A DNA stretch of 64,000 nucleotides from a bacterium (GCA_037200965.1 JBBCGK010000001.1:896001-960000), one strand, 5' to 3'. Positions 2,629-15,795 are shown, counted from the stretch's first letter. Program-made: numbers and translations. Notes: generated by a model not told the origin, from the sequence alone.

Positions 2629-4683
2629 ATGGCGAAGGCAGAGGCAAAAACACCCGCAAAAGCGAAGGCGTACGATGCGTCGGCCATTACCGTGCTCGAG
2701 GGCCTCGAGCCGGTCCGGAAGCGCCCGGGAATGTACATCGGGACCACGGGTCCCGACGGCCTCCACCACCTCATCTGGGAGATTTTCGACAACTCCCGCG
2801 ACGAGGCCATGGGCGGGCACGCGAACGACATCGAAGTCGCTCTTCTTCCGGACGGCTATGTGCGCGTAGCGGACAACGGACGCGGCATCCCGGTAGGGAT
2901 ACACCCAAAGACGAAGGTCTCGGCGCTTGAAACCATCATGACGACGCTCCATGCCGGAGGAAAGTTCGGCGGGGACGACAGCGGGTACAAGGTCTCGGGC
3001 GGGCTTCACGGCGTGGGCGCCTCCGTCGTAAACGCGCTTTCGGTGCATACGATGGCAACCGTGCACCAGGACGGCGGTATCCACATGCAGGAGTACGCGA
3101 TCGGAAAGCCCAAGGGGAAGGTAAAGCAAATCGGGAAGACCAAGGAGCGCGGCACGATCATCAAATTCAAGGCCGACGATACGATATTCAAGGACGGCAT
3201 CAACTGGAACTGGGACAAGATCGTCGCGCACCTGCGCCAGCAGGCATATCTCGTGAAGGCGGTGCGCATCTCGATCATCGACGCGCGCGGGGCGGGGAAG
3301 ATCGACGACGAAAGCGTCTTCTATCTCCGGGATCTCAAGCTCGAAGTTCCGTCGATGTCCTTCTATTTCGAGGGAGGCCTTAAGTCGCTCGTCGCTTTCT
3401 ATAACAAGCACCAGAAGCCGGTGCATCCTCATATTTTCTACGCAGAGCACGAAGCGGACGGGGTCGCGGTCGAAGTCGCGCTCCAGTACGTCGACGACAT
3501 CACCCCGCGGCTTACCGCATTCGCGAACAATACGTACAACGCCGAAGGCGGTACGCACGTGACGGGCTTTAAGACCGCGCTTACGCGTACCCTCAACTCA
3601 TACGGCCGCACCGCGGGCATTCTCAAGGAAAGCGAGGAGAACTTCACGGGCGACGATGCGCTTGAAGGAATCACGGCAGTGATTTCGGTGAAGCTGCCGG
3701 AAATCCAGTTCGAGGGTCAGACGAAGGGCAAGCTCGGCTCGGTCGAGGCGCAGGGCGCGGTCGCAAGCGTATTCGGCTCCGCTTTTTCAACCTATCTTGA
3801 AGAGAATCCCGACGACGGGCGGGCGATCGTAAACAAGGTGCTGCTGGCACTCAAGGCCCGCAAGGCCGCGAAAGCCGCCAAAGACTCGGTGCTCCGCAAA
3901 GGCGCGCTTGAAGGCATGACGCTTCCGGGGAAGCTCTCGGACTGCCAGGTGAAGGACCCGGCGGAAGCCGAGCTCTTCATCGTCGAGGGAGATTCGGCAG
4001 GCGGCTCGGCGAAGATGGGCAGGGACCGCAGGACCCAGGCGATCCTCCCGCTTCGCGGCAAGATCCTCAACGTCGAGCGCCGCATCGACCGCATGCTCGA
4101 GTCGGACTCCATCCGCTCCATCGTCATCGCGCTTGGTGCCGCGATCGGCGACGTGTTCGACCTTTCGAAGCTCCGCTACCACAAGATCATCGTCGCGACC
4201 GATGCGGACGTCGACGGCGCCCATATCCGCACGCTCCTCCTCACTCTCTTTTATCGCCATTTCCGTCCGGTGATCGACGGCGGCTTCATCTACATCGCCC
4301 AGCCCCCGCTTTATAAGATCAAGAGGGGAAAGGAAGTATTTTATGCGTATTCGGACGAGGAAAAGAATAAGATTCTCGGGAAGGATGCCGCGCTCGCGGA
4401 AGAAATACAGGACGTAAGCGGAGAGGAGGACAGCGCGGGAGAGGAGGCAAGTGCTAAGAGGACCCCGAAGATTTCCATACAGCGCTATAAGGGCCTTGGC
4501 GAAATGAATCCCGAGGAGCTCAAAGAAACGACGATGGATGCCGGGAAGCGGGTCCTCAAGCAGGTCATGGTCGAGGACGCGCAGGAAGCGGACCGCATCT
4601 TCGATATTCTTATGGGCAAGGACGTTGCGAGCCGTAAGTCCTTCATACAGTCGAACGCGAAGCTCGCGAATCTGGATATATAA
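2629..4683 (+). CDS. gyrB: DNA gyrase subunit B
   Basis: 684 aa with GHKL ATPase, TOPRIM and GyrB C-terminal motifs (…GLHHLIWEIFDNSRDEAMGGHA…, …EGDSAGGSAK…, …PLRGKILNVE…). Confidence 0.96.
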   Translation: MAKAEAKTPAKAKAYDASAITVLEGLEPVRKRPGMYIGTTGPDGLHHLIWEIFDNSRDEAMGGHANDIEVALLPDGYVRVADNGRGIPVGIHPKTKVSALETIMTTLHAGGKFGGDDSGYKVSGGLHGVGASVVNALSVHTMATVHQDGGIHMQEYAIGKPKGKVKQIGKTKERGTIIKFKADDTIFKDGINWNWDKIVAHLRQQAYLVKAVRISIIDARGAGKIDDESVFYLRDLKLEVPSMSFYFEGGLKSLVAFYNKHQKPVHPHIFYAEHEADGVAVEVALQYVDDITPRLTAFANNTYNAEGGTHVTGFKTALTRTLNSYGRTAGILKESEENFTGDDALEGITAVISVKLPEIQFEGQTKGKLGSVEAQGAVASVFGSAFSTYLEENPDDGRAIVNKVLLALKARKAAKAAKDSVLRKGALEGMTLPGKLSDCQVKDPAEAELFIVEGDSAGGSAKMGRDRRTQAILPLRGKILNVERRIDRMLESDSIRSIVIALGAAIGDVFDLSKLRYHKIIVATDADVDGAHIRTLLLTLFYRHFRPVIDGGFIYIAQPPLYKIKRGKEVFYAYSDEEKNKILGKDAALAEEIQDVSGEEDSAGEEASAKRTPKISIQRYKGLGEMNPEELKETTMDAGKRVLKQVMVEDAQEADRIFDILMGKDVASRKSFIQSNAKLANLDI

Positions 4684-4687
4684 AGAC

Positions 4688-4715
4688 AAATGCCGGGCGT
4701 TGCCACCCGGCATTT
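4688..4715. terminator. bidirectional hairpin between convergent gyrB and 4733..5269 gene
   Basis: Perfect 10-bp inverted repeat aaatgccggg / cccggcattt with an 8-nt loop. A U-rich tract follows on the minus strand. Confidence 0.5.
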
Positions 4716-4732
4716 AACTCCCCGCTTTGAAC

Positions 4733-5269
4733 CTAGAGACTGAGGAAGATCTCCTTGCTCAGGCGAATGAGTTCCGCGTCCGGTTGCCGAAGCGTGTTTC
4801 TGTAAAATGCGGTAAGTTCTTCCCGGGTGAGATTTCGTCCCGGAGAACGACGTGTCAGCGCATTCGCGCACTGCCAACCGTCTTTTGGGTGCACGCCATT
4901 TCCCTCGTGACAGAAAAGGATCACGCTTTCAAGTGCCCATTTCGAGAGCTCGAAATACGTTCCAATTCCCGCGATTCGCGCAGCGGCGCACCTTGCTCCC
5001 GGACGAAAGTGTTGCTGAGCATATCCAGACCATTCGGTGAGGTTCCTGCCAATGACGGAGTCGATGTCGGGGGGATCGAATTTGTTTATGTTCCCGAATA
5101 CAAGCATTGCCCGAATGCATTCCTCCATGACGTGTGCCCATATGTCCGTTCCGGGCTCTTCTGGACCGACGCTGGTGAGGAAATCTTCAAGAGCAGTTTT
5201 CTGTTCCGGCCATGTATGTTCGGCGCGGAAATACTCCAGCAAAGCGGACGCATTTTTGCAGTCAGACAT
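4733..5269 (-). CDS. hypothetical protein (178 aa; possible DinB/YfiT-like helical-bundle fold, weak)
   Basis: ORF with ggagag Shine-Dalgarno sequence 7 nt upstream of the ATG at 5269. No confident family assignment. Confidence 0.5.
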   Translation of the reverse strand: MSDCKNASALLEYFRAEHTWPEQKTALEDFLTSVGPEEPGTDIWAHVMEECIRAMLVFGNINKFDPPDIDSVIGRNLTEWSGYAQQHFRPGARCAAARIAGIGTYFELSKWALESVILFCHEGNGVHPKDGWQCANALTRRSPGRNLTREELTAFYRNTLRQPDAELIRLSKEIFLSL

Positions 5270-5344
5270 TTTCTCTCTCCGTGCGTTGGGTTGTCAGGAT
5301 ATTGATGGAACCAGATAACTATTTGCATCGTACATTCGGCAACC

Positions 5345-5387
5345 GGGAAAAACAAGAGAACCGCCCGCAATCCTTGCTTGCGGGCGG
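5345..5387 (-). terminator. rho-independent terminator of the CARDB gene
   Basis: Stem ccgcccgcaa / ttgcgggcgg with a 7-nt loop. On the minus strand it is followed by uucucuuguuuuucc. Confidence 0.55.
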
Positions 5388-5405
5388 CGCCTTTCTTGTG
5401 AAATC

Positions 5406-6200
5406 TTAATCTCTGATCTCAATCGAAGCCGAAGCGTAGTTATTGCTTTCGTCGGACTCGCTCACGTCCTTGTCGGGGTCGAGCGTGACCGAGAAGCTCT
5501 GGTCGCCGGTCTTCGCTTCGCCATCGTCGAGATGGAGCATGAAGTCGATATGGTCGCCGGGATTGAGGGAAACCTGGGTAGGGGAGCTGAAGGTATAGCT
5601 CTGCTTGGTCGGGAGCTTGGCTTCGAAGTCCCAGGTGCCGGAGACATTCGTGCCGCGGTTAACGACCGAGAACTTGACCGCGAAGCGGCGGTTATCCGGA
5701 ACGCTCGAACTCAGGACGAACGCCGCGTCGCTGCTGTCGTTACTGGGAAGGTAGCCGACGACGAGATTCGTGACCGTGAGGTCAGGGAGGCCTGTGAACG
5801 AGCCGCTGCGGACCGCGGTGCCCGTGCCCGGTATTACGTATGCGTTATTCGCAGGCGCGCCCGCGGACGGGGTCGGCGCGACGGTCGCCGTAACCGAAGA
5901 GGTCGTCGTGGTCGTTGCGGGGATCACGACCGTGGTATTTACGGTCGTGGTGCTTGCAGCAGGGGTTCCAAACGGAACGACGGTGCCGGAGTTCACGACC
6001 TCAAGCGTGCTTTCCTTGGCGGGAACGAATACGGAAGAGAGCGAAACGGCCGCCTGGCCGATGCCGGAAATCGCGGCAGGGATATAGCGCGCCGTATAGA
6101 CGGCGAGCGTCATGCCGATAAAGAGAAGCGCGATGAAGCCGACGACGGCGAGGGCCCGAATGGCCGCCTGGCGGTTGTGGATCTGGGTTTCAGTATTCAT
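5406..6200 (-). CDS. membrane-anchored surface protein with C-terminal CARDB domain
   Basis: Most plausible start is M63 of ORF 5406..6386 (MNTETQIHNRQAAIRALAVVGFIALLFIGMTLAVY…; the N-terminal stretch is a TM helix). A Thr/Ala-rich linker is followed by a CARDB-like region PDLTVTNLVVGYLPS…FAVKFSVVNRGTNVSGTW…LDPDKDVSESDESNN. Confidence 0.6.
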   Translation of the reverse strand: MNTETQIHNRQAAIRALAVVGFIALLFIGMTLAVYTARYIPAAISGIGQAAVSLSSVFVPAKESTLEVVNSGTVVPFGTPAASTTTVNTTVVIPATTTTTSSVTATVAPTPSAGAPANNAYVIPGTGTAVRSGSFTGLPDLTVTNLVVGYLPSNDSSDAAFVLSSSVPDNRRFAVKFSVVNRGTNVSGTWDFEAKLPTKQSYTFSSPTQVSLNPGDHIDFMLHLDDGEAKTGDQSFSVTLDPDKDVSESDESNNYASASIEIRD

Positions 6201-6286
6201 AGGGATATGGATATATCTAACATGGCCCATTTTATTTGTCAATAGCCTCTTGTCAAGTTTTGTTCTTTGGGGCCTTATGCGACCTC

Positions 6287-6316
6287 TTGACAGGATCATT
6301 CTTATAGTGTAAATAT
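6287..6316 (+). promoter_or_regulatory. sigma70-like promoter candidate for the sortase gene
   Basis: TTGACA at 6287-6292, a 17-nt spacer, then tgtAAATA at 6308-6315. ATG at 6329 with essentially no leader. Confidence 0.25.
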
Positions 6317-6328
6317 GAGCAAGACTAT

Positions 6329-7012
6329 ATGAACGCAGTCGATAACGCAGTGCGGCTCGCGAGGGCCGCCAAAAGGGCGTACGCACGAAAGTGGGCCTTC
6401 GGAGGCCTGACTTTTATTGCATTCCTTCTTTCCGTTACGACGCTTGCGCATCTTGACCTCTTGCCTGAAGCGGCCGCGCCGCAGACGGCATCCGCCGGAT
6501 CGGCGCCCGCAGTCGCCATGGATGTTTCGGGCGTTGTTTCCGCTCCGACTATACCGCAGTCCGCTGAGCTTCCCGTGAAGATCGAGGTGCCGTCGATCAG
6601 GCTGTCCGCGAAGATCGCGAATCCGTCTTCGACCGATATCGAAACGCTCGACCATGCGCTTCTTGGCGGAGCGGTCAGGTACCCGACGTCGGCGAAGCTT
6701 GGCGAAGCCGGGAACGTGATACTCTTCGGCCACTCAAGCTATCTGCCGGTCGTGAGCAACCAGGCGTTCAAGACGTTCGACGGCATACAGAACCTTGAGA
6801 AAGGAGACCGCATCATCGTATCTTCAGGCACGAGGGCGTACGCCTATGCGGTAGCAGGCGTGTCGAAGCAGAGCGCGGCATCCGACGCCGGAATCGCCCT
6901 GACCTCGACCGGCCATACGCTTACGCTCGCCACGTGCGACTCGTTCGGAGAAAAGACCGACCGGTTCGTCGTGACCGCAGAACTTGTCGAGAGCTATCCG
7001 CTCGTCCCCTAG
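6329..7012 (+). CDS. sortase (class E/F-like transpeptidase) with N-terminal TM anchor
   Basis: Catalytic triad context: …NVILFGHSSYLP… (His), …GHTLTLATCDSFG… (TLxTC Cys), …TDRFVVTAEL (Arg). Confidence 0.8.
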   Translation: MNAVDNAVRLARAAKRAYARKWAFGGLTFIAFLLSVTTLAHLDLLPEAAAPQTASAGSAPAVAMDVSGVVSAPTIPQSAELPVKIEVPSIRLSAKIANPSSTDIETLDHALLGGAVRYPTSAKLGEAGNVILFGHSSYLPVVSNQAFKTFDGIQNLEKGDRIIVSSGTRAYAYAVAGVSKQSAASDAGIALTSTGHTLTLATCDSFGEKTDRFVVTAELVESYPLVP

Positions 7013-7141
7013 GGGGCGGCCGGATAGCTCTCTGCAAACTTTCCGCAAGGGAAGCGCAGAGGCGAAGAAATTCGTTCTTTGTAACCGTGAGTCAGTAATA
7101 ACCCTAGAGCCGCGTGAGCGCGGCAGATCGGAGAACAGGCG

Positions 7142-8233
7142 ATGCGTAGAATTCTCATCGCCGGTGTCGTGCTCGCCCTCTTGGCGATTATCGGCATCGG
7201 TCTCTACAACTTCTTCTCGGCGAGTTCGGCCTCTCCGGCGAAGTCGCCGGTGTGCGCTGTGACGCTTAGCGAGCGTCACAGCATGGGATGGAAATATCCT
7301 GGCGCTGACCCGTTGGTCGAGCGCAAGGGAACCCATTCCGAGCGGCTTGCGAAGGCTCGCACCTTTGACCGTTGTTCGATGGAGCGCGCCGGAATCCCTG
7401 CGAAGGTGATCGACGCGTTCCTGAAGGCAATGGCGAAGCCTGGCGTGCATAAGTCCATCAAGGACGGCGTGCGCTACGATTTCGTCTCAAGCCGCGGCCC
7501 TACAGTCACGAAGAATGTCACGACGCGGTTCGGCCGCGGCGTTCCTCTCAAAAGTGAGAAGCGCTCCGCTACCGAATATGTCGTGGTCGTCGACGGGGTA
7601 ACCTGGATCGCCGACCGTTTTGACTGGTGCATGAATCTCGGCGTGCGCCATGTGCGCAAGCCGAAGAAGCATCATCCGCCGAAGCGTCACCAGCCCCCTC
7701 CGCCCGTAAAGGTCACGGAAGAGCGCTGCTACCGCATGCCGTACGACTATCGGACGACGACGGGCGAAAACGGGAAACCTCTTCCCGCGATCGACGTCTC
7801 GGACGGCTTCGTGCATCATCAGATCTACGTCAAGGATCTGACGAGCGAGGTTATGGCCGAGCTCATCAGCGATCCGTGCACGTACATGCACGACGAAACC
7901 GGCGACTACCGGCTCGAGCTCGGCTGCGACTGCGCCCGCGGCGGCTATCCGTCGCCCGAAGTGGCCGAGAGGAACGATCTCCCGGCGCAAAGGCCCGAAG
8001 CGGTGGCGCACGTGAAAGGGAGGGGCTTGGTCGGCTACTACTCGTATCCGATCGACTTCAACCGCTCCACGCTCTACTGCGTGCGGACCAACGGGTACCA
8101 TCTCGAGACCCGGGGGTTCGAAGCGTTCATGGCGTTCTCGCGTTTTGAGATCGTGTCCAGGACCGCGGTGGCTGAAACCCGGCAGGCGGGCCAGCTCAGC
8201 TGGGCCGTCACCGGTTCCGGAAAGACCCTCTGA
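7142..8233 (+). CDS. Cys-rich membrane-anchored hypothetical protein (363 aa)
   Basis: ggaga Shine-Dalgarno sequence 7 nt upstream. N-terminal TM helix MRRILIAGVVLALLAIIGIGLY. Two Cys-rich domains separated by a basic/Pro linker KPKKHHPPKRHQPPPP. No family recognised. Confidence 0.5.
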   Translation: MRRILIAGVVLALLAIIGIGLYNFFSASSASPAKSPVCAVTLSERHSMGWKYPGADPLVERKGTHSERLAKARTFDRCSMERAGIPAKVIDAFLKAMAKPGVHKSIKDGVRYDFVSSRGPTVTKNVTTRFGRGVPLKSEKRSATEYVVVVDGVTWIADRFDWCMNLGVRHVRKPKKHHPPKRHQPPPPVKVTEERCYRMPYDYRTTTGENGKPLPAIDVSDGFVHHQIYVKDLTSEVMAELISDPCTYMHDETGDYRLELGCDCARGGYPSPEVAERNDLPAQRPEAVAHVKGRGLVGYYSYPIDFNRSTLYCVRTNGYHLETRGFEAFMAFSRFEIVSRTAVAETRQAGQLSWAVTGSGKTL

Positions 8234-8336
8234 CCCAAAGCCGTACGCTTGACAACAAGGCGACGGCAGTGTAATCTTTTGAGAGCGGGGAATCGTGCCA
8301 CGGCACATCCCCGCCCTCTTTGTACGGGAATCAATC

Positions 8337-10778
8337 ATGACCACCGAAACCACAACCATTTCACAAAACAAAAAGAACATGAGCCCGCTCGTCACCGGGC
8401 TCTTGAGCGTGGTCGCGGTGCTCTCGATCGGCTTCAGTCTCGGCATCGTGACCGGGGTCGTGAACGTCCCTTTCACCGAAGCCTGCTGCGTTCTACCGCC
8501 TCCACCGATCGTCATCCCTCCACCGATCGTCATCCCTCCACCGATCATCCTTATCCCGAGCTGTTCGCTCGAAGTGGAACCGTCTTCCATACATCCCGGC
8601 GAAACCGCGACGCTTTCGTGGACTACCGTGAACGTAACGGGCGCGGAAATCGATCATGACATCGGCGAGGTCGATCTCGACGGCACGTACGACGTATCTC
8701 CCTCGGAGACGACCGAATACACCATGACGGGCATGGGTCCCGGAGGCGAGACGATATGTACCGCAACCGTCGAGGTCATACCGCCTCCTCCCCCCGCTCC
8801 TACTTGTACGCTCACCGCATCCCCGGCCTCCTTTACGGGCAGTGGCGTATCGACGCTCACATGGACCACCTCGAATGCTACCTCGTTCACCATTAACCAC
8901 GGCGTCGGTTCGGTAACTCCGGTTGCCAGCGGATCGAAAGTCGCTCCCGCCATAAGCGCGAATACTACGTATACCGGTACGGTAGAGGGGCCGGACGGGC
9001 AGCAGGATACCTGCACCGCAAGCGTCACCGTGACGCCCGTATCGCCTGGCACCCCGGCCTGTACGCTCACGGCCTCTCCGGCAAGTTTTACCGGCACGAG
9101 CGTGCAGCCAACCCTTACCTGGACCACCTCGAACGCAACCTCGTTCACTATTGACCATACGATCGGTTCCGTAACGCCGGTGGGAAGCGGCTCGGTCTTG
9201 GCTCCCGCCATTACGACCACCACTACCTACACCGGTATCGCTACAGGTCTCGGCGGCACTTCGCAGCCGTGTACGGCGACCGTCACGATAACCCTGCCGG
9301 GTGCGCCTGCATGTACGCTCACCGCATCCCCGGCCTCCTTTACGGGCAGTGGCGTATCGACGCTCACATGGACCACCTCGAATGCTACCTCGTTCACTAT
9401 TGATCATGCGATCGGCTCGCTTACTCCGGTCGCGGGCGGTTCCACGACGACGCCCAACCTTACGGCTACCATCACCTACACCGGTATCGCTACCGGTCCT
9501 GCAGGCACGTCGCTGCCCTGCACTGTAACTATTACCGTCACGCCATCCACGCCGGGGCTCGCGTGTACCCTCACCGCAGATCCGACCTCTCTCCCGGAGG
9601 GCGGCGGCACTTCGACCCTCACCTGGACTACGACCGGCGCTACGTCTTTCTCTATCGACAATACTATCGGTGCGGTATCTCCTCTGTCCGGCGGTTCCAC
9701 GACGACGCCGAAGATCACGGACGACACGACGTTCACCGGCACGGTAACCGGTCCTGCCGGAACCAATAGTTGTACCGCGCAAATCACGGTCGCCGCCAAA
9801 CCGAGCTGTACGAGCGGTTGCGGAGGGGGCGGAGGAGGAGGGGGCGGCGGCGGTCGCCGTGTCAGCCGTCCGCACGTGACGCTTGATGTCCTCAAGCAGC
9901 CGGATGTCGAACCGCTCGCCTTCGTCTATCTTTCGCAAATTCCCTATACCGGCCTCGATCTCGGGCCTGTCGGCACCGTCGCATACTGGGTCGCGCTCGT
10001 CGCATGGAGCCTCGCGGTCGCGTATCTTGCGCTCTTCATCCTCCTGCCGTATCTCAGGCGCCGCATGCAGCGGTTTGCGGAGGCCGTAACCGAGACGCTG
10101 AACGCCGAGCAGCTTGCACCCGAAACCGCCCCGGCATATCGTCCGGAGCCCGCCAAAGCCCCGGTCATGCGCGCGTCCGCAGCGCAGAACGCCGCTCGCG
10201 GGTACTCCACGTACGACGGATTCCGTTCGTTCGCGAAGTCCGGCAGCCTCTCGATCGACGATATCGTGAAGGGTCTTGCGCGCGAGTCCGCGCCCGACGA
10301 CGCGGTCGTACATTCCGAGCGCATCGTGGCCCGCGCCCAGAAGACGGAGCCGATCTATGAGAGCGTCGAGCCTATCTATGGAAATGTCGAACCGGTGCAT
10401 TCGAGCGCGGCACCCGCTCGCCAGGCACCGCAGGCAAACGCGGCCCCGGTGCATCCTGAGGTGCCGGGCTTCATCGAAGCCCTTCTTAAGGGCGAGCGGG
10501 AAGTGGTATTCGGCGCCGTCCGCGCTACGGTCCGCGCCGGGGGAGACGCCGAAGCGTTCCTCACCCAGGTCGTCTGCGCGCTTGATGACGCGTACCGCGC
10601 GCGTACGGAAGGCACGCCGGTGCATCCGGAGGTGGCGCGCATCACGAACGATTGCGCGACCTCCTTCCTCGAACGCCTCGTGACCTCGCTTTCGACTGCA
10701 GTCGACTCAAGCTACTCGCAGGGCATCACGGGCGCGAAGCTCGCGCTCACCAGGGCGCTTGCCGTTACGGGAGCGTAA
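8337..10778 (+). CDS. large surface protein: N-terminal TM, poly-Pro stalk, 5 tandem ~84-aa Thr-rich Ig-like repeats, poly-Gly, IPYTG-TM-RRR signal, ~240-aa C-terminal domain
   Basis: ORF 8295..10778; M15 at 8337 is the likely start (TM follows). The repeats each begin CTLTASPASFTG…TLTWTTSNATSFTI…. Confidence 0.7.
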   Translation: MTTETTTISQNKKNMSPLVTGLLSVVAVLSIGFSLGIVTGVVNVPFTEACCVLPPPPIVIPPPIVIPPPIILIPSCSLEVEPSSIHPGETATLSWTTVNVTGAEIDHDIGEVDLDGTYDVSPSETTEYTMTGMGPGGETICTATVEVIPPPPPAPTCTLTASPASFTGSGVSTLTWTTSNATSFTINHGVGSVTPVASGSKVAPAISANTTYTGTVEGPDGQQDTCTASVTVTPVSPGTPACTLTASPASFTGTSVQPTLTWTTSNATSFTIDHTIGSVTPVGSGSVLAPAITTTTTYTGIATGLGGTSQPCTATVTITLPGAPACTLTASPASFTGSGVSTLTWTTSNATSFTIDHAIGSLTPVAGGSTTTPNLTATITYTGIATGPAGTSLPCTVTITVTPSTPGLACTLTADPTSLPEGGGTSTLTWTTTGATSFSIDNTIGAVSPLSGGSTTTPKITDDTTFTGTVTGPAGTNSCTAQITVAAKPSCTSGCGGGGGGGGGGGRRVSRPHVTLDVLKQPDVEPLAFVYLSQIPYTGLDLGPVGTVAYWVALVAWSLAVAYLALFILLPYLRRRMQRFAEAVTETLNAEQLAPETAPAYRPEPAKAPVMRASAAQNAARGYSTYDGFRSFAKSGSLSIDDIVKGLARESAPDDAVVHSERIVARAQKTEPIYESVEPIYGNVEPVHSSAAPARQAPQANAAPVHPEVPGFIEALLKGEREVVFGAVRATVRAGGDAEAFLTQVVCALDDAYRARTEGTPVHPEVARITNDCATSFLERLVTSLSTAVDSSYSQGITGAKLALTRALAVTGA
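8493..8558 (+). repeat. 21-bp direct repeat (about 2.5 copies) encoding PPPIVIPPPIVIPPPIILIP
   Basis: cctccaccgatcgtcatccct repeated in tandem, seen directly in the sequence. Confidence 0.7.
8562..9800 (+). repeat. tandem array of ~252-bp coding repeats (5 copies; the first and last are divergent)
   Basis: Copies start at about 8562, 8805, 9060, 9312 and 9564. An 80-nt block is identical between 8811-8890 and 9317-9396. Confidence 0.8.
9822..9854 (+). repeat. GGN simple-sequence tract encoding Gly11
   Basis: ggagggggcggaggaggagggggcggcggcggt, potentially slippage-prone. Confidence 0.6.
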
Positions 10779-10792
10779 TCGGATTTAATAAA

Positions 10793-10833
10793 AAGAAGAA
10801 CACCGGCGGACGAAATCCGCCGGTGTTCTTCTT
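10793..10833. terminator. bidirectional rho-independent terminator between the surface-protein gene and thrS
   Basis: Perfect 18-bp stem aagaagaacaccggcgga / tccgccggtgttcttctt with loop cgaaa. U-tract on the minus strand (uuuauuaaa), weaker on the plus strand. Confidence 0.7.
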
Positions 10834-10841
10834 TTGCGCGT

Positions 10842-12584
10842 TTAAGAACGCGTTTTGATTTCCCTGAGCGCTTTCGCGGCAAAATCTGCCTGCTGCATCG
10901 CGTCGAGCTTGCCGTGGTCCCGGCTTTCAACAGAAACCGTACCAGATTCTTGTTCTTTGTCGCCGACGACAAGTACGTACGGAACCTTCTCGAGTTTTGC
11001 CGCGCGCACTTTCTTGCCGAGGGACTCGTTCGACGAATCTGCCTCCGCGCGGATATCGGCTGCCTTGAGCGTTGCCAGAACCTCTCTGGCATATCCGTCA
11101 TGCTTCTCCGAAACCGGAAGCACCTTCACCTGCACGGGCGAGAGCCAGAGCGGAAAAGCTCCGCCGAAATGCTCGATCAGGAAACCGAAGACACGCTCCA
11201 AGCTGCCGATCGTAGAACGATGGATCATGACCGGTCGTTTCTTTTGTCCGTCCGCGTCTATGTATTCGATATCGAATTTTTGGGGAAGCAGGAAATCCAT
11301 CTGGGCAGTAAAAAGAGTATCCTCTTTGCCGTTCACGTTTTTTGCCTGCACGTCGAGCTTCGGGCCGTAAAAAGCGGCCTCGTCTTCCGCCTCGACATAC
11401 GGAAGCCCGAGTTCATCGAGCGCTTCTTTCATAAGTCCCTCTGCAAGATTCCAGAGATCGTCGTCGGGATAATATTTTTCCTTGTTATCAGCATCCCGCT
11501 TCGAGAAGCGATATGAGACGACATCGATAAGACCAAGGCCTTTCATTCCCTCGACGATCATCGTGCATACGCTCTTGAATTCCTCCTTGAGCCCTTCCCG
11601 GGTTACGAAAATATGTCCGTCGGTAAGCTGGAACTTGCGGACACGGATCATGCCCATGAGCTCTCCCGATTTCTCATATCGGTTATAGTCGGCTATTTCC
11701 GCGTAACGCACGGGCAGATCCTTATAGCTCCACTGTTTTCTCTGGAACATCCGAATATGATGGGGGCACGCCATCGGGCGCAGGTAGAACTTGTCCCCGT
11801 CCATGTCGATAGGCGCATACATATTGTGCGCGTAATGGTCGAGGTGTCCTGAAATACGATACAGCTCCTCGCCTCCGAGATATGGCGTCGACACATGCTC
11901 ATAGCCATATTTGCGTTCGAGTTCCCGTGCGAAGTTCTCCATTTCGAATTTCACCGCAGTGCCCTTCGGCGTCCACAAAGGAAGGCCTTTGCCGACTTTT
12001 TCATCGATCAAAAAGAGGTCCAGCTCGCGGCCAAGCCTCTTATGATCGCGCTTCTCCGCCTCCTCTCTTCGCATACGATAGGCCTCCAAGTCCTCTTTAG
12101 TCTCAAACGCGAGCCCGTAGATGCGGGTCAGCTGCGCGTTCTTCTCGCTACCGCGCCAGTACGCGCCTGCAATACGGTCGAGGGCGAACGACTCGGGGGC
12201 GATCTCCTGTGCCGGGTTATCTGCCTGACCGCCACGGCAAAGATCCGAATACGCGCCGGAAGTATAAAATGAAACCTTCTGTCCGTCGGCGGTAAATTCG
12301 TCGATCAGTTCCTGTTTATAGGGATTCCCCGGGTACTGCGCCTTCGCTTCCTCGGCCGAAAGTTCCGAACGCGTGAATGAGGTCCAGGTCGGAAGCAGTC
12401 TGCGCATGACTTTCTCGATCTCGGGAAAATCCTTCTCCGATATCGGTTTCGAAAATTCGAAATCGAAATAGAAGCCGGTATCGATCGCAGGGCCGATAGT
12501 CCGCTTGGTGTCCGGCCACAGTTCCATGACCGCGGCGGCCAGGAGATGCGCAAGCGTATGCCGTTTTTCTTCAAGCGTTGCCAT
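10842..12584 (-). CDS. thrS: threonine--tRNA ligase (lacks the N-terminal TGS domain)
   Basis: Class II aaRS motifs and the ThrRS editing/second additional domain (MATLEEKRHTLAHLLAAAV…). Start taken at M8 of ORF 10842..12605. Confidence 0.93.
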   Translation of the reverse strand: MATLEEKRHTLAHLLAAAVMELWPDTKRTIGPAIDTGFYFDFEFSKPISEKDFPEIEKVMRRLLPTWTSFTRSELSAEEAKAQYPGNPYKQELIDEFTADGQKVSFYTSGAYSDLCRGGQADNPAQEIAPESFALDRIAGAYWRGSEKNAQLTRIYGLAFETKEDLEAYRMRREEAEKRDHKRLGRELDLFLIDEKVGKGLPLWTPKGTAVKFEMENFARELERKYGYEHVSTPYLGGEELYRISGHLDHYAHNMYAPIDMDGDKFYLRPMACPHHIRMFQRKQWSYKDLPVRYAEIADYNRYEKSGELMGMIRVRKFQLTDGHIFVTREGLKEEFKSVCTMIVEGMKGLGLIDVVSYRFSKRDADNKEKYYPDDDLWNLAEGLMKEALDELGLPYVEAEDEAAFYGPKLDVQAKNVNGKEDTLFTAQMDFLLPQKFDIEYIDADGQKKRPVMIHRSTIGSLERVFGFLIEHFGGAFPLWLSPVQVKVLPVSEKHDGYAREVLATLKAADIRAEADSSNESLGKKVRAAKLEKVPYVLVVGDKEQESGTVSVESRDHGKLDAMQQADFAAKALREIKTRS

Positions 12585-12605
12585 AGGATATAGAGAATAG
12601 CACAC

Positions 12606-15600
12606 CTAGAGCGCCTTCAGGTTCTCGATCGCGAGCGTGGTCTCGCCGTTTCTGAGGGACACCTTTGCTTTTATAAGAACGCATTTGCCGGGAACGATGA
12701 GCCCCTGGTGTTCCTTGAAAAGCTTCGGGAAGACGACCGATTCGATCGAGGCGGTCTTGTCGGCAAGCTTCACGAACGACATCTTGTCGCCGTTTTTCGT
12801 GAGCATCGTCTTTATCTCTTCGATAAGGGCCGGAAGGATGACCGGAAGGCCTTGCTGTGGGTTTTCCTTGAGCGATCCGATCGTGAACTTGGCCTGGCCG
12901 AGCTTCTCGTCGTGCGCGTCAAGCGGATGGCCCGAGACGTAGATACCGAGCAGTTCTTTTTCCCATTCGAGCTTTTGTGCGACCGAGACATCCTCGGCTG
13001 GCTTAAGGACGAGCGCGGCGGAGTTTGCAAGCGAAGCGCCGAAGAGCGAATCCTGCGGCGCTGCGGCAGTCGCATCGCGGTGAAAGAGCAGCAGGTGCTC
13101 TATATTCGCGAGAAGCTCTCCGCGGCTGCCGAATCGGTCGAGCGCGCCGCAGCGTATAAGCGACTCGAGAGACTTGCGGTTAAGGTTTCTCGAGCCGACG
13201 CGGGAGAGAAAGCCGGTGAGGTCCTTGAACGGTCCGTGCGCGTTCCGCTCGTCAAGAATCGCTCCGGCTATGCCGTCACCGAAATTTTTGATTGATGAGA
13301 GGCCGAAGCGGATGCTGTCTTTCGCGCCGCCCACGACCGTAAAGGTGGTGCCGCTTTCGTTTATGTCCGGCGGAAGGACGGGTATCTTCATGCGCTCGCA
13401 TTCGGCGGCGAGTATCGCGATCTGCTCGGTGTCGCCCGCGTCGGCGGTCAAAAGCGCCGCCATGTATTCGACGGGGTAGTTCGCTTTCATGTACGAGGTC
13501 TGGTACGCGACCTTGCCGTAGCTTGCCGCATGCGCCTTGCCGAAGCCGTAGGCGGCGAACGGCTCGATGAGCTTCCAGAGCTTTTCCGCCTTCGCTTCCG
13601 TGAGCTTGCCGAACTCCTGGAACCCCTTGGTGAGCTTCTCCTTCTCCTTCTCCATGATTTCCGGAATCTTCTTGCCCATCGCCTTGCGGAGCGCGTCGGC
13701 CGTAAGCCAGGAGTAGCCGCCGAGCTTTATCGCCGTCAGAAGCACGTCGTCCTGGTACACCAGGAGCCCGTACGACGCATCCAGGTATTCCTTCATGCGC
13801 TCGTCAAGGTACGTGATCATTTTCGGATTGCTCTTGCGCTCGATATAGGAGGGGATGGATTCCATCGGTCCCGGGCGGTAGAGCGCGACCATGGCGTTGA
13901 TGTCGTGGATGGTAGTCGGCTTGAGCTCCTTCAAATAGCGCGTCATACCCGAGCCGTTCAATTGGAACGTGCCTTCGGTCTCGCCGCGGGCGAGCATGGC
14001 GAAGGTCTTCGGGTCGTCAAGCGGCACCGCCTCGATGTCGATATAGATGCCTTTGCTTTCCCGCACGCGCTCGACGGAGTCCGCGAGGATGGCGAGGTTC
14101 TTGATGCCGAGGAAGTCGAACTTCAAAAGCCCCGCGTCCTCGATGGAATGCATGTCGTACTGCGTGATCAGCTTGCCGCCCTTGGGGTCGAACTGGAGCG
14201 CGGTCCATTCGGTAAGCGGAGTGGGTGCGATCACGACGCCCGCCGCGTGCACGCCGGTATGCCGCACGCAGCCTTCGATCCGGCGGGCGAGATCGAGTAT
14301 TTCGTGCGAGTCCTCGTCTTCCTCGTAGAGGCTCTTGAGGTCGGGCTCGAGCTCGAACGCCCGGTCGATCGTCATGGGGAATCCTTGCGAGCCGATCGGG
14401 ATGAGTTTCGCGATGCGGTCACCGGTGCCGTATGCATGTCCGAGCGCGCGCGCGACATCGCGGACCGCGGCGCGGGCCATCATGGTGCCGAAGGTGCCGA
14501 TCTGCGCGACGCGGTCGTCGCCATATTTTGATTTCGCATACGCGATCATCTCGTCGCGTCGATTGTCGGCGAAGTCCATGTCGATGTCCGGCGCGGACGG
14601 GCGCTCGGGATTGAGAAAGCGCTCGAAGGGGATTTTGTAGGCGAGCGCGTCCACGTTCGTGATCCCGGCAAGGTACGTCACCATCGATCCCGCGACCGAT
14701 CCGCGGATCGTCGTCAGGATGCTGTTCTTATGGGCGAAATCCAGGAGGTCGGATACGACGAGGAAGTACGGCGCGTATCCCTTGTCGCCGATGATCTTGA
14801 GCTCGTATTCGACGCGTTCAAGGAGCTCCGGCGTGGCCGTAAGCCCTCTTCTTGGTATTCCGGCGAACGTCTTCGCGCGCAGCTCCTCATCGTGCGTTTT
14901 GAACCCCTCGCCGACCGCAAGGTCGGGGAACACCCATTTGCCGAGCTCGAAAACGACATTGCAGCGGTCCGCGATTTCCTTCGACCGGTCGACCGCCTCG
15001 GGCATGTCCTTGAAGTACGCGAGCGCCTGCTTTTCGCTTATGAAAGAGAAGTCCTCGACTTCATTGCTCCGGTTGCCGCCCCCGCCGTGCTGGATCCTCC
15101 GCATCACCTCGCACGCTTCCCGGTCGTCGGGGGAGAGATAATACACGTCGTGCTGCGCGACGACCGGCACGCCGGAGGATTTCGAGAGTTCGACGATCCG
15201 CTTCATCTTTTCCTGGTGTCCGGCGGCCTTGGGGTGGTACGTGACTTCGAGGAAGACGTTGTCCTTGCCGAACATGCTCACGTATTCGGCAAGCGTCGCG
15301 GCCGCCGCCTCCGTCTGTCCCGCGCCAAGGAGCTTCGCGACGTCTCCGGCAAATGAGGGAATGATGGCGATAAGCCCGCCCGGGTGCTTTTTAAGAAGCT
15401 CCTTGTCCATGCGGGGCCGTTCGTTGAAGCCTTCGGTGAAGGACTTGGTGACGAGCTTGAGGAGATTCTTATAGCCGTCGTTATTTTCCGCGAGGAGCAC
15501 GAGCCGGGAGCGGTGTTCGTTTTGCCCCTTATCAAAGCGCGAACCGTGCGCAAGGTATGCGTCGACGCCGATAATGGGTTTCAGCTCCGCTTTTTTCGCC

Positions 15601-15761
15601 TCCTTATAGAATTCGATCGCGCCGTGGAGATTTCCCGAGTCGGTGAGCGCGAGCGCTTCCATGCCTTCCTTTTTCGCGGCACCCACAAGCTCGTCGATCT
15701 TCGGGAGTGCCTGGAGGAAGGAGTAGTGGCTGTGGGCGTGGAGATGGATAAAGCGACTCAT
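12606..15761 (-). CDS. dnaE: DNA polymerase III alpha subunit
   Basis: PHP domain at the N-terminus (MSRFIHLHAHSHYSFL…), then polymerase core, fingers and OB domains. About 1051 aa. Confidence 0.95.
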   Translation of the reverse strand: MSRFIHLHAHSHYSFLQALPKIDELVGAAKKEGMEALALTDSGNLHGAIEFYKEAKKAELKPIIGVDAYLAHGSRFDKGQNEHRSRLVLLAENNDGYKNLLKLVTKSFTEGFNERPRMDKELLKKHPGGLIAIIPSFAGDVAKLLGAGQTEAAAATLAEYVSMFGKDNVFLEVTYHPKAAGHQEKMKRIVELSKSSGVPVVAQHDVYYLSPDDREACEVMRRIQHGGGGNRSNEVEDFSFISEKQALAYFKDMPEAVDRSKEIADRCNVVFELGKWVFPDLAVGEGFKTHDEELRAKTFAGIPRRGLTATPELLERVEYELKIIGDKGYAPYFLVVSDLLDFAHKNSILTTIRGSVAGSMVTYLAGITNVDALAYKIPFERFLNPERPSAPDIDMDFADNRRDEMIAYAKSKYGDDRVAQIGTFGTMMARAAVRDVARALGHAYGTGDRIAKLIPIGSQGFPMTIDRAFELEPDLKSLYEEDEDSHEILDLARRIEGCVRHTGVHAAGVVIAPTPLTEWTALQFDPKGGKLITQYDMHSIEDAGLLKFDFLGIKNLAILADSVERVRESKGIYIDIEAVPLDDPKTFAMLARGETEGTFQLNGSGMTRYLKELKPTTIHDINAMVALYRPGPMESIPSYIERKSNPKMITYLDERMKEYLDASYGLLVYQDDVLLTAIKLGGYSWLTADALRKAMGKKIPEIMEKEKEKLTKGFQEFGKLTEAKAEKLWKLIEPFAAYGFGKAHAASYGKVAYQTSYMKANYPVEYMAALLTADAGDTEQIAILAAECERMKIPVLPPDINESGTTFTVVGGAKDSIRFGLSSIKNFGDGIAGAILDERNAHGPFKDLTGFLSRVGSRNLNRKSLESLIRCGALDRFGSRGELLANIEHLLLFHRDATAAAPQDSLFGASLANSAALVLKPAEDVSVAQKLEWEKELLGIYVSGHPLDAHDEKLGQAKFTIGSLKENPQQGLPVILPALIEEIKTMLTKNGDKMSFVKLADKTASIESVVFPKLFKEHQGLIVPGKCVLIKAKVSLRNGETTLAIENLKAL

Positions 15762-15795
15762 GACGTACAGCATACCAAGCTGCTATGCTTCGTGC

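Follow-up and report, generated by a model that had tools for sequence, protein, structure and literature searches.

The locus and its sorting-signal-like segment

The 64,000-nucleotide stretch of bacterial DNA analyzed here (GCA_037200965.1, JBBCGK010000001.1:896001-960000; the window) encodes a predicted surface protein, hereafter the target, in which the pentapeptide IPYTG is followed by a hydrophobic span and an arginine-rich tail, in the manner of a sortase sorting signal, and then by a long conserved region instead of the stop codon. A sortase is encoded upstream, and both genes belong to a conserved four-gene cluster that comprises a CARDB protein, the sortase, a Cys-rich membrane protein (the middle protein), and the target. 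An earlier reading of the window from sequence alone (the sequence-only reading) had drawn attention to this arrangement. Each of the elements that it listed, namely, the N-terminal transmembrane (TM) segment, Pro stalk, five repeats, Gly11 tract, IPYTG-TM-RRR unit, and C-terminal extension, was found in the open reading frame (ORF).

The target ORF lies on the plus strand and runs from a GTG at 8295 or an ATG at 8337 to 10778; residue numbers are counted throughout from the GTG at 8295. The length of 827 amino acids (aa) that had been given for 8337..10778 applies to the GTG start, those coordinates encoding 813 aa, and the N termini of homologs favor the ATG. Pfam and NCBIfam scans of the whole target protein returned no family match. 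Counting also the scans of the signal segment and of the C-terminal domain, the one hit was to TIGR04438 (E of 0.11), and it was dismissed as noise.

Table 1. Genes of the cluster and segments of the target protein in the window
Feature	Position	Strand	Residues	Basis or remark
CARDB-domain protein, membrane-anchored, divergent from sortase	5406..6200	-		Pfam PF07705, E 9.5e-8; one TM segment
Sortase, membrane-anchored, unclassified subfamily	6329..7012	+		Catalytic H135, C203, R212
Middle gene, Cys-rich, N-terminal TM segment	7142..8233	+		Fast-evolving conserved family
Target gene	8337..10778	+	813 aa from ATG	Predicted surface protein with candidate internal sorting signal and cytoplasmic domain
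N-terminal hydrophobic segment (signal peptide or signal anchor)	8379..8489	+	29-58	Hydropathy; basic n-region before
Pro-rich stalk (PPPIVI units), LPPPPIVIPPPIVIPPPIILIP	8493..8558	+	67-88	18-bp tandem repeat, 2.7 copies
Five Thr-rich repeats, 80-86 aa, two Cys each	8562..9806	+	90-504	Variable ectodomain
CTSGC and Gly11 tract	9807..9854	+	505-520	
Candidate sorting-signal core, PLAFVYLSQ-IPYTG-LDLGPVGT	9912..9977	+		Alignment of 84 loci
Hydrophobic span (TM2) and RRRMQRF tail	9963..10076	+	557-587 and 588-594	Hydropathy
Cytoplasmic linker, mostly disordered	10077..10439	+		Alignment; predicted local distance difference test (pLDDT) <60 save short helix
C-terminal domain, 112 aa, six helices	10440..10775	+		Modeled DnaX gamma/tau domain III (clamp-loader collar) fold

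IPYTG occupies residues 549 to 553 (nucleotides 9939-9953) and is preceded by a 28-aa linker that ends in PLAFVYLSQ. The putative scissile bond joins T552 and G553 (nucleotides 9948-9953), and the stretch spanning the candidate sortase cleavage site reads …AFVYLSQIPYTGLDLGP…. Across the 84 aligned loci, Pro, Thr, and Gly are found in every sequence, the first position is filled by Ile (68), Val (7), Thr (5), Met (3), or Leu (1), and the third by Tyr (81) or Gln (3). Judged from the alignment, the motif follows the LPXTG pattern, with P, T, and G fixed, a hydrophobic residue leading, and variation tolerated at X. The Kaiserbacteria-type clade also has nearly invariant flanks, with PLA[YF][LV]YLS[QE] before the motif and L[DE]LGPxGTxxYW after it. 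More distant relatives, which either match the profile of the C-terminal domain or lie beside sortases 37-39% identical to that of the window, keep L[SA]Q[IV]P[YV]TG, and the residues that follow have diverged in them (GVGS, GFDAGP, GFANGE, GFGGGS, GFPASP, GLGDWY, and GLSDHY).

The hydrophobic span after the motif has a median length of 29 aa. In the 84 loci, the 31 residues that precede this span contain on average 0.45 Lys and Arg together, against 3.77 in the 20 residues that follow it, which would place the motif on the outer face of the membrane according to the positive-inside rule. In the AlphaFold 2 (AF2) model the pentapeptide lies in coil, 5 residues ahead of the TM helix (pLDDT of 94-97). 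Both the charge bias and the model thus argue against an IPYTG in the cytoplasm or within a helix, a placement that would have spoken against a sorting signal.

The segment is remote from the C terminus, with 274 residues after the motif in the window and 243 to 317 in the 58 complete ORFs of the family. The sortase-signal-like unit is therefore not C-terminal, as had been proposed, and it recurs with invariant P, T, and G. The recurrence of the layout in at least 258 species representatives excludes that the motif is a coincidence, which the sequence-only reading had kept as an alternative.

The neighboring sortase is genuine: it matches PF04203 with 74.9 bits against a cut-off of 26.6 (E of 6e-21), and its gene ends 1.3 kb upstream of the target. 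The catalytic residues lie in FGHSSYLP (His), LTLxTC (Cys), and dRF (Arg), and 95% or more of 72 sortase homologs retain these motifs. None of the NCBIfam class models reached its cut-off (score/cut-off in bits: E, 48.3/160; D, 32.8/165; C, 29.4/160; F, 22.2/166; GN, 15.5/158), so the enzyme is left unclassified with respect to the curated classes (A-F and GN). Its nearest solved structure is 2kw8 (E of 2.5e-7).

A sortase homolog (E of 1e-57 to 1e-77) is encoded upstream on the same strand, at a median gap of 1.16 kb, in all 54 target loci that had more than 2.6 kb of upstream DNA. The reverse was found in a different collection, where a sortase-seeded search gave 16 loci, 11 of them with downstream DNA: all 11 carry either the target or the middle gene with the beginning of a target behind it. 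These loci include the two most divergent sortases, 37-39% identical to that of the window, and at one locus (L087) sortase and target directly abut. The co-location first seen in the window thus holds both ways. The CARDB and middle families have neither a conserved xPxTG nor a C-terminal TM segment, and a search of the window and of about 1 Mb of flanking loci, a sample biased to one genomic region, turned up no canonical C-terminal sorting signal. This leaves the target as the only candidate substrate in the cluster.

The cytoplasmic region and the family that carries it

From the RRR tail to the stop codon the target has 240 residues (aa 588-827), 233 of which follow RRRMQRF. This C-terminal region of about 240 aa was present in all orthologs examined and is, in support of the sequence-only reading, an integral part of the protein and not a fusion or assembly artifact. 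In the AF2 model the TM helix runs on into the cytoplasm and is followed by a largely disordered linker and then by a confident six-helix domain. The linker has conserved motifs, RGYSxYDGF[KR]SFA…LSIDDIVKGLAR and EPIY heptads, and these motifs and the C-terminal domain are as conserved as the sorting signal. The region had been described as non-repetitive, which does not hold throughout, given the two to three EPIY-type heptads within it. At 10347-10400 (aa 685-702) the tandem heptads TEPIYES-VEPIYGN-VEPVH form a 21-bp DNA repeat in the linker, and orthologs have two to four copies with the consensus VEPIYENVEPIYE (VEPIYExV type). EPIYA-type linear motifs of secreted effectors, which also contain Tyr, resemble these heptads.

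Fold comparison of the C-terminal domain placed E. coli polymerase III tau/gamma at ranks 1 and 2 (scores of 13.9 and 13.4), the top match extending over 104 residues at 2.1 Å with 15% identity. It was followed by B. subtilis delta (rank 3, 11.9), RFC5 (rank 4, 9.9), an archaeal RFC small subunit (rank 5, 9.8), delta' (rank 6, 9.6), T4 gp44 (rank 9, 7.7), and the C-terminal domains of MgsA/RarA (ranks 10 and 11, ∼7); mostly unrelated helical proteins appear from rank 12 on (≤6.7). Foldseek, used independently, filled almost all of its top ∼35 places with E. coli gamma/tau chains (TMq of 0.74-0.79). From structural knowledge of 1JR3 we assign the matched residues, 241 to 361, to domain III, the collar by which the clamp-loader pentamer is held together.

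Sequence comparison was less telling. The domain had no Pfam or NCBIfam match, Pfam clamp-loader models included, and a PDB sequence-profile search with its alignment gave nothing significant. Homology to DnaX was considered and set aside as too weak, hhalign against E. coli DnaX domain III (a sequence verified against 1xxi_B) giving an E of 0.008 and a probability of 4.9% with 43 columns in register. The target has no AAA+ module, the region N-terminal to the domain being ectodomain and TM segment, and no DnaX gene was found within the window or the examined loci. As modeled, the C-terminal domain has a collar fold and is not a clamp-loader subunit.

In six distant members of the family (P0239, P0240, P0244, P0250, P0251, and P0254), the GFKSFA/SIDDIVKGL motifs are replaced by an extra conserved cytoplasmic segment between the TM helix and the collar-like domain, of the form …LIS.EG…YPREDGW..LN..R…. 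These proteins also have much larger ectodomains, of up to 1337 aa, with SpaA_2/CLIPPER-type domains.

A search with residues 521 to 827 retrieved 259 proteins (E down to 1e-120), nearly all covering 92-99% of the query and all from metagenomic Paceibacterota, Kaiserbacteria, or Parcubacteria. In a GTDB scan with one genome per species, the module polyGly…PLA[FY][VL]YLSQ-[IVTML]-P-[YQ]-T-G, followed by the TM segment, basic cluster, and C-terminal region, was present in at least 258 species representatives, all of them Paceibacteria/Kaiserbacteria-type members of the Candidate Phyla Radiation (CPR). With the last 112 aa as query, an exhaustive HMMER search gave 422 clusters at 50% identity, and in every listed match the domain lies at the C terminus or a few dozen residues from it. 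The architecture was found in related genomes: 58 complete ORFs from independent assemblies, of 478 to 1226 aa, all begin with an N-terminal hydrophobic segment and a stalk of low complexity, which is either CC plus poly-Pro or an acidic Gly-rich variant; the variable ectodomain comes next, and then a linker, the motif, TM segment, basic cluster, and C-terminal region.

Many public entries of the family have only 266 to 330 aa and start ∼20 aa before the motif. These short, seemingly stand-alone homologs were considered as a sign that the ectodomain is optional, and this was rejected: at locus L004 the 266-aa entry P0111 is the tail of an uninterrupted 849-aa ORF with the full architecture, over whose repeats three spurious antisense genes had been called, and the short call is a gene-finder artifact. 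Long antisense ORFs also cover the repeat-rich, GC-rich coding region in the window (8493-10625, minus strand, 710 aa) and at L004 (6656-7756, minus strand). The family is systematically misannotated in databases and, being so badly miscalled, has probably been overlooked. Two loci, L014 and L018, come from separate contigs of one metagenome-assembled genome (JAJXUQ01, BP5.bin105) and carry one family member each, which points to paralogs in one genome or to a mixed bin.

Ectodomain, neighboring genes, and a second cassette

The N-terminal segment of the target ends in an AxA-like TEA followed by Cys-Cys, and orthologs have sites of the VFAQ/V, FAEA/CC, and HALA/EG types 8 to 12 aa past the hydrophobic core. 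The hydrophobic region is long (∼28 aa), so the segment may be an uncleaved anchor. Poly-Pro tracts reach up to ∼30 residues in orthologs. The five repeats of the target are 37-69% identical in pairwise comparisons; three of them had been called nearly identical, and this overstated the 65-69% identity among repeats 2 to 4. The repeat type of the window is present in 50 of the 58 orthologous ectodomains, which vary in copy number and in added domains (SpaA-like domains, CLIPPER domains, and CMDxxATNYN units).

A Gly run of 5 to 25 residues precedes the motif by ∼25-30 aa in 55 of the 58 complete ORFs (9819-9854 in the window; loci L001-L084). This internal tract may serve as a flexible wall-spanning stalk or as a cryptic nucleophile. 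About half of 54 complete ORFs have a CxxxC before the poly-Gly. Disulfides between stalks, formed by the N-terminal Cys-Cys and this CxxxC, were considered and discarded, the two features being uncorrelated (15/14/13/12).

About one-fifth of the family (L010, L021, L025, L047, L055, L059, L061, L062, and L072) has another conserved N terminus in place of CC and poly-Pro, namely, RGFVLQ…HALAEGDGGGGAGGGGD with acidic Gly-rich repeats. Two N-terminal stalk types are thus combined with one C-terminal module.

CARDB homologs occur in 51 of the 54 target loci, usually head-to-head with the sortase. With its start at 6386, the longest call for the CARDB ORF overlaps the beginning of the sortase gene (6329). 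The start that homologs support is the Met at 6200 (MNTETQ), which leaves a divergent intergenic region of 128 bp (6201-6328) that presumably holds both promoters. The middle protein is presumably extracytoplasmic. In 53 of the 54 loci, sortase and target are separated by an ORF of ∼300-590 aa, and 52 of 55 such ORFs, the window copy included, form a single phmmer-linked family with a median of 9 Cys. The middle protein had no significant Pfam or NCBIfam match, its only hit being far below the cut-off. The gene is absent at the distant locus L087 and apparently also at L052. The gene order GyrB, CARDB, sortase, middle, target, ThrRS, and DnaE (window 2629-15773) is the same at L001 (GCA_023269085.1). 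The cluster has other contexts at L004, L029, and L087, and proximity to dnaE is therefore not a conserved feature.

A second ORF at L066 (4688-6697, plus strand) contains a homologous APYTG cassette, …VYLYLSQAPYTGLELG…TM…RIRR, without the collar-like domain. Past the cassette, 24 residues lead in frame and without a stop into the complete CARDB protein of the cluster. A protein search with this cassette gave no matches. If the fusion is real, it would be a second kind of internal sorting signal, in a topologically coherent "polyprotein" that sortase could cleave; if it reflects a lost stop or an assembly error, the cassette would be a canonical C-terminal PYTG signal. In either case, the occurrence of the cassette without the collar-like domain marks it as a module that can be separated, which fits a sorting signal.

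Proposed processing, its alternatives, and known systems

The cluster is a real, widespread, and uncharacterized system that unites a dedicated sortase with a substrate-like surface protein bearing an internal signal and a collar-fold tail. We propose, with somewhat better than even confidence in the picture as a whole, cleavage and the role of the collar included, that the target is the dedicated substrate of this sortase and bears an internal sorting signal. The precursor would be exported by means of its N-terminal hydrophobic segment and held in the membrane by the second span, with the basic tail and ∼240 residues on the cytoplasmic side, as the positive-inside rule predicts. The sequence …YLSQ-IPYT|G… would then be displayed just outside the membrane to the membrane-anchored sortase encoded with it. 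The sortase would cut between Thr and Gly and transfer the variable ectodomain with its repeats, which is probably an adhesin that binds a host or a surface, to an acceptor in the cell envelope, most likely a peptidoglycan precursor by analogy with LPXTG sorting. On the cytoplasmic face, the collar-like domain may oligomerize or dock precursors and so cluster or position them before sorting. The sequence-only reading had cleavage release the C-terminal domain into the cytoplasm, which does not follow: the TM helix is C-terminal to the cut, so the remnant, made of the G-LDLGP stub, the TM helix, and the cytoplasmic domain, would persist in the membrane.

Several points weigh against this proposal. 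The N-terminal segment, if uncleaved, would leave the protein anchored at both ends. Oligomerization of the C-terminal domain is suggested by analogy of fold, the sequence similarity to DnaX being marginal. The Pfam and NCBIfam hidden Markov models (HMMs) of LPXTG anchors, Gram_pos_anchor included, miss segments of 45 and 69 aa from the target at E up to 10; the curated short models of such anchors were built on Firmicutes and Actinobacteria. Conservation reaches beyond the pentapeptide, into PLAFVYLSQ upstream and LDLGPxGTxxYW downstream, unlike in classical signals, and could reflect a different, structural role. Finally, we know of no sortase substrate in which a large domain follows the signal, and literature searches for one found none.

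These last three observations would equally suit an uncleaved bitopic or two-TM surface protein, in which the conserved YLSQIPYTGLDLGP is a juxtamembrane structural or docking element, for instance for the middle or CARDB protein, and the neighboring sortase serves substrates encoded elsewhere. Poly-Pro and poly-Gly at the two ends of the ectodomain are also as expected of a loop anchored at both ends. We regard this as a credible but unlikely alternative. It does not account for the strict two-way synteny with a catalytically intact sortase, which extends down to 37% identity, nor for the retention of xPxTG in distant relatives whose post-Gly flanks have diverged, and neither the cluster nor its flanks hold another candidate substrate.

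It is quite unlikely that cleavage is coupled to signaling or to the replisome, such that the membrane-retained C-terminal fragment reads out sortase processing or its failure. The DnaX-domain-III-like module would then bind a cytoplasmic partner, possibly clamp-loader subunits, and link surface display or host contact to an intracellular process. The best structural matches of the domain are to gamma/tau domain III specifically, and the domain and linker motifs are conserved as strongly as the sorting signal. A precedent for a sensed post-sortase remnant exists in Streptococcus gordonii, where, as PMC11326707 recounts, the histidine kinase SGO_1180 senses a C-peptide. The marginal similarity to DnaX, the absence of matches to Pfam clamp-loader models, and the loss of the dnaE adjacency at other loci (L004 and L087) all argue against such a link. 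Collar domains are chiefly oligomerization modules that hold clamp-loader subunits in a ring, which makes self-association the simpler reading.

The fate of the ectodomain might also differ from the one proposed. Instead of becoming linked to peptidoglycan, it could be joined, as in pili, to a Lys or the N terminus of the CARDB or middle protein, or shed by hydrolysis. A sortase accompanied by three exported or membrane proteins does resemble a pilus island. The conserved poly-Gly ∼28 aa upstream of the motif could also be read this way, oligoglycine being the classical sortase nucleophile in S. aureus (PMC12445088). This tract is internal, however, and would offer no free N-terminal amine unless a further cleavage occurred; the ectodomain, which is poor in Lys, shows no evident pilin-motif Lys, and the sorting signal is confined to one protein of the cluster. 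In pilus islands every pilin carries its own. We therefore consider ligation to a cluster protein, or release, to be very unlikely.

A still bolder scheme would have internal cleavage yield two functional products, a wall-linked variable adhesin and a membrane-tethered collar-like protein that engages the clamp loader or another cytoplasmic oligomer and thereby couples anchoring or host attachment to replication or cell-cycle control; we hold this to be highly improbable. An artifact, whether a gene fusion, an assembly error, or a chance xPxTG beside a TM helix, has a negligible probability: public gene calls are often fragmentary, as noted above, but these are miscalls, as the 849-aa ORF at L004 shows by spanning the whole architecture, and the layout or module is carried by 58 complete ORFs, 258 species representatives, and 422 clusters at 50% identity.

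The signals of sortases, exosortases, archaeosortases, rhombosortases, and myxosortases are defined as C-terminal, and to our knowledge annotation pipelines seek sorting signals only there. A mid-protein signal with its own sortase and a conserved cytoplasmic domain, found across hundreds of CPR species, challenges this rule. If the proposed cleavage takes place, sortase substrates can be polyprotein-like precursors, and the remnant after cleavage can be a full protein in its own right. It would also mean that CPR bacteria have a lineage-specific way to organize a variable, probably host-binding surface protein. The clamp-loader collar fold on a surface protein is an unexpected reuse of a module of the replication machinery, and the two-product scheme, if true, would amount to sortase-driven transmembrane signaling in host-dependent bacteria.

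Sortases are common in CPR bacteria (PMC6744442). Literature searches did not find the target family, a PYTG signal, or an internal sorting signal with a following domain described. A report on CPR pili (bioRxiv 10.64898/2026.03.03.709456) was set aside, as it concerns an unrelated donor-strand system in Saccharimonadia and Microgenomatia.

A canonical sortase substrate has a signal peptide at its N terminus and, at its C terminus, an LPXTG, hydrophobic domain, and charged tail (PMC12445088). The system described here shares with the S. aureus protein A/SrtA type a putative N-terminal export signal, the order of xPxTG, hydrophobic span, and basic cluster, and a membrane-anchored Cys transpeptidase with a His/Cys/Arg triad. 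It differs in that the candidate signal is internal, with 240 conserved residues from the basic tail on in place of a stop codon; in that [IV]PYTG sits inside a highly conserved block of ∼30 aa in a protein that the anchor HMMs miss; and in that the sortase falls outside classes A-F and the hosts are CPR/Patescibacteria. Sortase-assembled pilus islands differ as well, only the target bearing a sorting-signal-like element here.

The proteobacterial, or "marine," sortase TIGR03784 is paired with an LPQTG target in a dedicated one-sortase/one-target system. One-to-one pairing with a single neighboring target and an unusually well-conserved signal are common to both systems. In contrast, the sortase of the window scores 15.5 bits against the TIGR03784 cut-off of 158, its target has a cytoplasmic domain after the signal, and its cluster has two further conserved genes.

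PEP-CTERM/exosortase, PGF-CTERM/archaeosortase, GlyGly-CTERM/rhombosortase, and MYXO-CTERM/myxosortase are C-terminal sorting systems (PMC3237569; PMC11980579). They too combine a motif, a TM helix, and a basic cluster with a dedicated enzyme. Their signals are C-terminal and their enzymes unrelated, whereas the present system has a true sortase and an internal signal.

With the C-peptide of S. gordonii, as cited in PMC11326707, the predicted remnant would share the property of being a membrane-embedded fragment left by sortase cleavage that has a biological role of its own. There, a signal remnant of ∼30 aa acts through a separate kinase; here, the predicted remnant itself bears a cytoplasmic region of ∼240 aa. 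The domain at the end of that region has the helical fold of domain III in the clamp-loader collars (DnaX gamma/tau, delta, delta', and RFC; PDB 8gj0, 1jr3, 3zh9, and 1iqp), to which it has ∼15% identity. Unlike clamp-loader subunits, the target is without AAA+ domains I and II and carries its collar-like domain tethered to the membrane helix of a surface protein.

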